In this document: in pieces, positions 1 to 747 of the stretch | Numbering within the stretch: the stretch's first letter is position 1 | How the letters are laid out: every line of letters begins with the position of its first letter | From: Escherichia coli | GTDB lineage: Bacteria > Pseudomonadota > Gammaproteobacteria > Enterobacterales > Enterobacteriaceae | Strand: one strand, 5' to 3' | Length of the DNA: 747 bases | NCBI RefSeq assembly: GCF_003334385.1 | Contig: NZ_QOWN01000147.1 | Notes under the pieces: generated by a model | Told to the model about the DNA's origin: nothing | The model's input: the letters and a program-made list of their open reading frames with translations, nothing else | Databases searched by the model: none | Program-made: the position numbers and the translations under genes

Positions 1-19
1 GTGCCAATCCGGTGTGTGG
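1..19 (+). repeat. 19-bp shufflon-type repeat (putative Rci/sfx recombination site, left boundary of invertible segment)
   Basis: Seen directly: bases 1-19 GTGCCAATCCGGTGTGTGG are the exact reverse complement of 729-747 (19/19); identity stops at base 20 vs 728. From memory the R64 shufflon repeat consensus is GTGCCAATCCGGTNNNTGG (7-bp spacer GTGCCAA plus 12-bp right arm), which this fits. If so, the non-conserved left arm of the full site lies upstream of base 1, outside the window. Confidence 0.75.
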
Positions 20-352
20 CGAACGATTGGTGCACCTGACGGAAGTTACAGCAATCTGGGTTCTCACCGGGGAACATTTAACGGGAGAAATAACGGCAGA
101 GGAACTTTGTTTGTGTACGCTTCCGGTGGAAATGGTGCCGGTGGCGGTGATTGCGCCAACACATCAAATCTTCAGGGCTATGTGAACGGCGCTTTCATTG
201 GTATGAATGCCAGCAATAACCCCTCCTACGGAAAGACAGCATTTATTTCATTTGCCGTGCCAGTGGGAGCGTCATATCAAATCATCTCCAGACCAACACA
301 AAATTACGCCTGTGGTAACGGTGTTTTCTCTGTGTATGCCTATCAGATGTGA
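1..352 (+). CDS. pilV: 5'-partial CDS: alternative C-terminal variable cassette of a PilV-like minor pilin/adhesin (Gly/Asn/Ser/Tyr-rich), stop TGA at 350-352
   Basis: Frame is open from the window edge (codon phase starts at base 2: TGC CAA TCC GGT GTG TGG = CQSGVW) to the TGA at 350-352. The GTG at 14 listed in the ORF track lies inside the repeat with no Shine-Dalgarno upstream, so the true start is presumably upstream of the window. About 20 Gly in 112 residues and 2 Cys (GDCANT, NYACGNG). The gene symbol is inferred from the shufflon context, not from recognised protein sequence. Confidence 0.65.
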   Translation, partial: CQSGVWRTIGAPDGSYSNLGSHRGTFNGRNNGRGTLFVYASGGNGAGGGDCANTSNLQGYVNGAFIGMNASNNPSYGKTAFISFAVPVGASYQIISRPTQNYACGNGVFSVYAYQM

Positions 353-356
353 GTCC

Positions 357-747
357 CTAGCTGGCTTTAACAATGTAGTTGAATGCAATATTTTTGGGAC
401 GCATTTCTGTGGTACTCCCCTGTGCCCAGTATGGCATACCACTATGATGCCCTTTCAGCCATCCGCCACGTTCGTGATAGACGCCTGATTGATCGGCCTG
501 ATAACTCAGGAGTTGTCTGTTCCGATCACCATCAAGTCCCTTCCCGTTATCCCAGCCACGGATAAAAACACCGCGCAGATCGGGCAATTTACAGCTAGGA
601 TAAGCACGGGCAAGCTGAGGATACCGGGAACAGGAAAACGACTGGCCGTTCATCAACAGATAGCCTTGTGGAGGAGTGGCAGATGGCCACGGGATAGGGC
701 TTCCCACCGGGTAGGATTCAAAGCCAACCCACACACCGGATTGGCAC
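357..747 (-). CDS. pilV: 5'-partial CDS: alternative C-terminal variable cassette of a PilV-like adhesin with a phage tail-collar-like motif, stop TAG at 357-359 (read on - strand)
   Basis: On the - strand the frame is open from the window edge (phase starts at base 746: TGC CAA TCC GGT GTG TGG = CQSGVW) to the TAG at 359-357. Contains ...LMNGQSFSCSRYPQLARAYPSCKLPDLRGVFIRGWDNGKGLDGDRNRQLLSYQADQ..., which resembles the conserved core of phage tail-fibre collar domains (NGQ...YP.L...LPDLRG.F.RGWD) as I recall them. No RBS or start of its own. Gene symbol inferred from context. Confidence 0.65.
   Translation of the reverse strand, partial: CQSGVWVGFESYPVGSPIPWPSATPPQGYLLMNGQSFSCSRYPQLARAYPSCKLPDLRGVFIRGWDNGKGLDGDRNRQLLSYQADQSGVYHERGGWLKGHHSGMPYWAQGSTTEMRPKNIAFNYIVKAS
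729..747 (-). repeat. 19-bp shufflon-type repeat, inverted copy (putative Rci/sfx recombination site, right boundary)
   Basis: Seen directly: 729-747 CCACACACCGGATTGGCAC is the perfect reverse complement of 1-19. On the - strand it encodes the same C-Q-S-G-V-W peptide in the same phase as the left copy. Confidence 0.75.

Follow-up and report, generated by a model that had tools for sequence, protein, structure and literature searches.

The plus-strand cassette of an IncK2/Z shufflon segment is very probably the PilVA-type C-terminus of a thin-pilus adhesin

A stretch of 747 nucleotides of Escherichia coli DNA, here called the window, contains two convergent open reading frames, at 2-352 on the plus strand and at 746-357 on the minus strand, that each run in frame from an sfx recombination site. 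This arrangement raises the question of what the plus-strand frame encodes and what its product might bind. We conclude with high confidence that the region 20-349 supplies PilV, a minor pilin and presumed tip adhesin of the type IVb thin pilus, with an 'A'-type variable C-terminal cassette, and that this cassette would act as an Rci-switched binder of the LPS core. Plasmids of the IncK2/Z type are epidemic in poultry, food and humans, where they carry blaCMY-2 and further resistance genes, and their PilV cassette repertoire would determine which recipients are accessible to them in liquid and in the gut.

The window was found to be 100% identical to the E. coli plasmid pJKHS006_1 (locus L001), and about 220 further conjugative plasmids of the I-complex, typed IncK2/Z and for the most part from E. 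coli and Shigella, match it at 99% identity or more. In pJKHS006_1 it is located between a tyrosine recombinase gene and pilV with the pil operon of a type IVb thin pilus. The recombinase, which lies outside the window and is annotated as 'site-specific integrase', has 75% identity to Rci of R64 (373 aa), and homologues of pilS, pilU, pilR and pilQ are present upstream of pilV. R64-type sfx sites are 19 bp long and consist of a 7-bp core and a 12-bp right arm. The sites at the two ends of the window are 100% complementary and fit the R64 consensus GTGCCAATCCGGTNNNTGG, which is present at seven R64 sites, and their bases 2-19 double as codons for the junction peptide CQSGVW. The 747 bp of the window make up a single, complete invertible segment of the PilV shufflon of IncK2/Z (I-complex) plasmids (Table 1). 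It corresponds to the 'repeat-g ... repeat-g' segment of the variable IncK2 shufflons described by Seiffert et al., and its sfx is their 'repeat-g' (PMC5350095).

Table 1. Features of the 747-bp invertible segment (positions refer to the window).
Feature	Position	Strand	Basis or remark
sfx site 1 (19 bp, GTGCCAATCCGGTGTGTGG)	1-19	+	perfect inverted repeat with 729-747
PilVA-type variable C-terminal cassette, 110 aa; stop 350-352	20-349	+	R64 A homology, in-frame fusion, AlphaFold2
GGNGAGGG variable-length surface loop, directly before the first cassette Cys	125-148	+	family alignment, DSSP of the model
Cassette Cys51, half 1 of a predicted intra-cassette disulphide	152-154	+	Cys covariation in the family alignment
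Cassette Cys104, half 2 of a predicted intra-cassette disulphide	311-313	+	Cys covariation in the family alignment
Tail-collar-type alternative cassette, 123 variable residues; stop 357-359	357-728	-	Pfam, 2XGF and PHROG matches
sfx site 2, inverted	729-747	-	codes CQSGVW for the minus cassette

Only four bases separate the stop codons with which the convergent cassettes end (350-359), which leaves no space for a terminator between them. A convincing intrinsic terminator was found nowhere in the 747-base window, where promoter and terminator scans remained at chance level and Rfam gave no match (E ≤ 1). With no terminator between the cassettes, the pilV transcript must run into the antisense of the silent cassette.

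The plus-strand frame (reading frame 2) consists of CQSGVW, 110 further residues and a stop codon. In pJKHS006_1 pilV is completed by the minus cassette, resulting in a protein of 453 aa, and in the Klebsiella pneumoniae plasmid pC (locus L004) it is completed by the plus cassette, resulting in an annotated PilV of 444 aa. The Shufflon_N domain (PF04917) was detected in PilV with E values of 6e-61 and 2e-47, together with a weak N_methyl motif at 9-27, and in the plus fusion this domain spans residues 37-332 and ends at the junction. Since the plus frame continues that of pilV across the recombination site, is conserved in about 1,950 plasmids and has a pS far above its pN (see below), it is far beyond chance.

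By the established shufflon mechanism, the tyrosine recombinase Rci would act on the two 19-bp sfx sites, which are identical and inverted, and flip the 747-bp segment that they bound. The constant region of pilV (Shufflon_N, ending ...LSCQSGVW) would run on into the plus cassette in one orientation and into the tail-collar cassette of the opposite strand in the other. The inversion would swap the 3' end of pilV, and the domain presumed to lie at the tip of the thin-pilus adhesin would change. When near-identical IncK2/Z plasmids were compared, the window segment was observed in either orientation and at differing positions of the shufflon. The shufflon regions compared were 5506-6747 of L001, 3982-5800 of L004 and 3367-5747 of L002. 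Shufflons of IncK2/Z plasmids hold two, three or four segments, with 4, 6 or 8 sfx sites. Segments are therefore commonly gained or lost between near-identical plasmids, and the adhesin repertoire on offer differs among otherwise identical plasmids. A separate observation was made in pS68 (IncI-gamma/K1; L005 3564-5983), where an IS903 transposase gene splits the shufflon and two of the sfx sites are degenerate (…ACCTGC and …CCGGGACGTGG); this shufflon may be partly frozen.

To identify the plus cassette, the R64 reference shufflon was dissected into its seven sfx sites and seven cassettes, and a comparison of each with the window gave one counterpart of the plus cassette, an R64 cassette of 117 aa with 67% identity over 116 aa (BLASTP, E=4e-48), which completes pilV in the reference record. 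One GenBank record labels the R64-type orthologue pilVA, and the AlphaFold database entry Q8L215, 'PilVA C-terminal segment' of Salmonella typhimurium, has 69% identity and a TM score of 0.93 to our model of the plus cassette. The IncI2 allele, for which pMTY14759_IncI2 (L006) was used as a stand-in for TP114 (MF521836), shows 78% identity and has the same sfx flanks. From these comparisons, the plus cassette is the IncK2/Z orthologue of PilVA of R64 and TP114 (67-78% identity), the 'A' cassette in shufflon nomenclature. A HMMER search over 1.84 billion representative proteins returned only 80 clusters matching the plus cassette, and in all 80 the match is either at the extreme C-terminus of a protein of PilV length or in a stand-alone, unfused cassette ORF. 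Judged by these matches, the PilVA cassettes are a narrow, dedicated family of putative adhesin modules. Published work already covers how shufflons operate, the PilVA type of cassette and its receptor, and hundreds of public records already label this sequence 'shufflon protein A / PilV', so that the identity reported here is already known.

Among the IncK2, IncI2 and IncI1 alleles of the cassette, pS was 0.71-0.83, i.e. saturated, and pN 0.12-0.20. The dN/dS ratio was 0.055 for the pair of the IncI2 and R64 alleles, the one pair it covers, as the synonymous sites of the window allele are saturated for the JC correction. These values indicate strong purifying selection on the protein, which argues against a silent or decaying spare part that hitch-hikes with the tail-collar cassette. 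Such a role would agree with pilV ending in the minus cassette in the plasmid that matches the window at 100%. It would also agree with the exact plus cassette being fused to pilV in roughly 30-40 plasmids and unfused in about 110, a rough estimate from the spread listing for the plus junction only, the junction-peptide tblastn counts being inflated by half-query matches. However, this is the ratio expected from random shuffling among several cassettes, and with two to four segments per shufflon a given cassette should by chance be the fused one in a minority of cases. In addition, about 300 plasmids carry the ORF intact and in frame at 95% identity or more, dozens of assemblies have it joined to pilV under that annotation, and its structural residues and cysteines are conserved. 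We therefore regard the spare part as largely refuted and highly improbable, and continue with a functional PilVA-type cassette.

The sequence-only reading had described the plus cassette as unrelated to the minus cassette and biased towards Gly, Asn, Ser, Tyr and Ala, with about 20 Gly in 112 residues. BLASTP between the two cassettes found only the six shared junction residues, in agreement with the first point. After CQSGVW the plus cassette contains 20 Gly (18.2%), 13 Asn, 11 Ser, 11 Ala and 8 Tyr, as well as 2 Cys, no Glu and 8 charged residues in all. The Gly count was therefore correct, and the cassette proper has 110 residues and not 112. Compared with an approximate E. coli background, the bias holds for Gly (P=1.6e-4) and Asn (P=3.7e-4), is modest for Tyr (P=0.012) and marginal for Ser (P=0.055), and does not extend to Ala. 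The GGNGAGGG stretch that had also been pointed out is present as cassette residues 42-49 (bases 125-148).

A structure prediction had been proposed as a check, and AlphaFold2 was run with a family alignment of 35 sequences on a construct of the plus cassette preceded by the last 28 residues of the constant region. The model is confidently all-beta, with a mean pLDDT of 88.7, and shows a hairpin of the constant region followed by about eight strands; pLDDT exceeds 90 across most of the plus-cassette domain. The cassette is predicted to be a compact eight-strand jelly-roll beta-sandwich, a kind of fold that often serves as a distal binding head. No Pfam family matched the plus cassette even at E ≤ 10, PHROG gave no match and the PDB no significant sequence match, and the domain is without a close solved relative or a transferable ligand site. 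C1q/TNF heads, CBM51 and phage tail-fibre tips resemble the model in fold class only (2-17% identity), and the Pfam and PDB searches placed the cassette in neither the C1q/TNF nor the CBM51 sequence profiles. C1q/TNF jelly-roll domains assemble as trimers.

The GGNGAGGG run and the 47% of G+N+S+Y could also be taken for a low-complexity or disordered linker, or for a glycine repeat like that of phage fibres. In the model, the GGNGAGGG loop is non-strand by DSSP and its block has a mean pLDDT of 85, below that of its flanks. The region is indel-prone in the family, with for example GGNPPPKKINSG... in other members, and the window allele has a one-residue deletion there compared with the R64 and IncI2 alleles. 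The Gly run is thus an indel-prone surface loop between two strands and not low-complexity filler. It is just 8 residues long, the remaining residues alternate between hydrophobic and polar and are predicted to form the 8 high-confidence strands, tandem repeats are absent, and neither PHROG nor Pfam gave a glycine-repeat match. The chance that the plus cassette is a linker or a fibre-like repeat appears close to negligible, and a folded domain is preferred.

The two cysteines noted earlier are both within the cassette, and a third Cys sits in CQSGVW and belongs to a pair of the constant region. This third Cys pairs with a Cys 17 residues upstream (...TSCSPDG...LSCQSGVW), and both are present in 18/18 alignment rows that span the constant region. 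The C-terminal cassette Cys (codon 311-313) is kept in 29 of the 35 family members, and 28 of these 29 also carry the Cys at the Gly loop (window codon 152-154). Four divergent members lacking the usual cassette pair have jointly gained another pair. This covariation suggests that, as the sequence-only reading had considered possible, Cys51 and Cys104 form a disulphide inside the plus cassette; it would anchor the variable Gly-rich loop to the stretch that precedes the final strand. Cysteines come in even numbers (2 or 4) in all R64 cassettes, suggesting that each cassette may be a self-contained, disulphide-stabilised unit.

The minus cassette was readily assigned. It matches the Pfam Collar family PF07484 (1.1e-13), T4 gp37 (2XGF, 2.2e-16) and the short tail fibre (5e-12), and PHROG tail-fibre families match it down to 3e-42. 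These matches make the minus cassette a homologue of T4 gp37 and a tail-collar domain of the phage type. The proposal that the two C-termini of the switch are structurally unrelated is borne out, with a predicted jelly-roll on the plus strand and a tail-collar homologue on the minus strand. The minus cassette occurs at at least 95% identity in about 400 I-complex plasmids, pO113 included, and the relatives next in line, at 40-45% identity, are tail-fibre genes carried by phage-plasmids.

What the plus domain binds was considered from its orthology with PilVA of R64 and TP114. Work on R64 and a systematic study of TP114 with recipient mutants gave GlcNAc-beta(1-3)-Glc as the PilVA receptor (PMC10654706; PMC9045228), and the need of TP114 PilVA for this linkage on the LPS core of the recipient was shown genetically (PMC10654706). 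By this orthology, the ligand of the plus domain would be a sugar epitope in the LPS core of the recipient, with GlcNAc-beta(1-3)-Glc as the likeliest candidate. Binding of the sugar would stabilise mating pairs in liquid and set which recipients get the plasmid. For the IncK2/Z allele we infer the same ligand, and retention of the receptor is most likely but not secure.

The window allele could instead be a PilVA-family cassette of diverged specificity that binds another LPS-core linkage or another surface glycan. About 34-38 positions differ between the window allele and R64 PilVA. Homologous adhesins of R64 and TP114 that are 5-36 residues apart have receptors in common (PMC10654706), so the distance to R64 is at the edge of the range reported with a shared receptor. 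The window allele has 16 substitutions that are absent from both characterised alleles and the one-residue loop deletion, its changes being more frequent outside the strands, and its partner was also swapped in the IncK2/Z lineage, from A' to the tail-collar cassette, so that the repertoire was remodelled. On the other hand, the core framework, both Cys and long identical blocks such as NASNNPSYGKTAFISFAVP and SNLGSHRG are kept with the characterised alleles, and every homologous R64/TP114 adhesin pair tested so far has a common receptor (PMC10654706). We consider a diverged specificity a possible but less probable outcome, and favour the retained receptor.

The partner cassettes bear on how this segment arose. 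A counterpart of the minus cassette was found in neither the R64 nor the IncI2 shufflon, where A lies opposite a 73-aa A' cassette. The A/A' segment of IncI2 (L006 3946-4519) and the segment of IncK2/Z have an identical sfx with the variable triplet GTG. Between IncK2/Z and IncI2, the A cassettes are synonymously saturated and the partner cassettes unrelated, yet the sfx sites are identical. The comparison of the two lineages hints at cassette replacement within a conserved recombination frame. That the IncK2/Z PilVA has shifted off GlcNAc-beta(1-3)-Glc alongside the replacement of A' by the tail-collar cassette seems rather unlikely to us. If it were true, I-complex plasmids would retune their host range by swapping receptor-binding modules with phages.

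As a discovery, the assignment of the plus cassette adds little: it supports the interpretation given in the sequence-only reading and is textbook shufflon biology. A putative PilVA-type LPS-core binder and a tail-collar cassette of probable phage origin on one segment lead to testable predictions of the recipient range of IncK2/Z plasmids.

The closest known system is the shufflon of R64 (IncI1), known from the Komano laboratory. Its PilVA (UniProt Q8L215, 'Shufflon protein A') follows CQSGxW at an sfx site as the window cassette does, and the two proteins (117 and 116 aa) share 67-71% identity, the same two Cys and the predicted fold (TM 0.93). The composition of the R64 A cassette is also similar, with 18.9% Gly and 49.5% G+N+S+Y, and both plasmid types have rci, the pil operon and the Shufflon_N constant region. 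The window differs from R64 in a Gly loop that is one residue shorter, in the variable sfx triplet (GTG, and ACG in R64) and in the partner, since the R64 segment combines A with the 73-aa A' cassette and the window segment combines A with a 129-aa tail-collar cassette. In IncI2 PilVA of the TP114/R721 type (pMTY14759_IncI2), with its 78% identity, GTGCCAATCCGGTGTGTGG is found at both ends of the segment as in the window, but A' is opposite A. The phage switches Mu G, P1 C and p15B Min are like the window in being invertible with two convergent, alternative receptor-binding C-termini, and by its sequence the minus cassette is truly homologous to phage tail-fibre collar domains. In contrast to the window shufflon, which uses the tyrosine recombinase Rci and has its 19-bp sfx sites inside the reading frame, the phage switches employ the serine invertases Gin, Cin and Min, and their crossover sites lie beyond the coding region or at its border.
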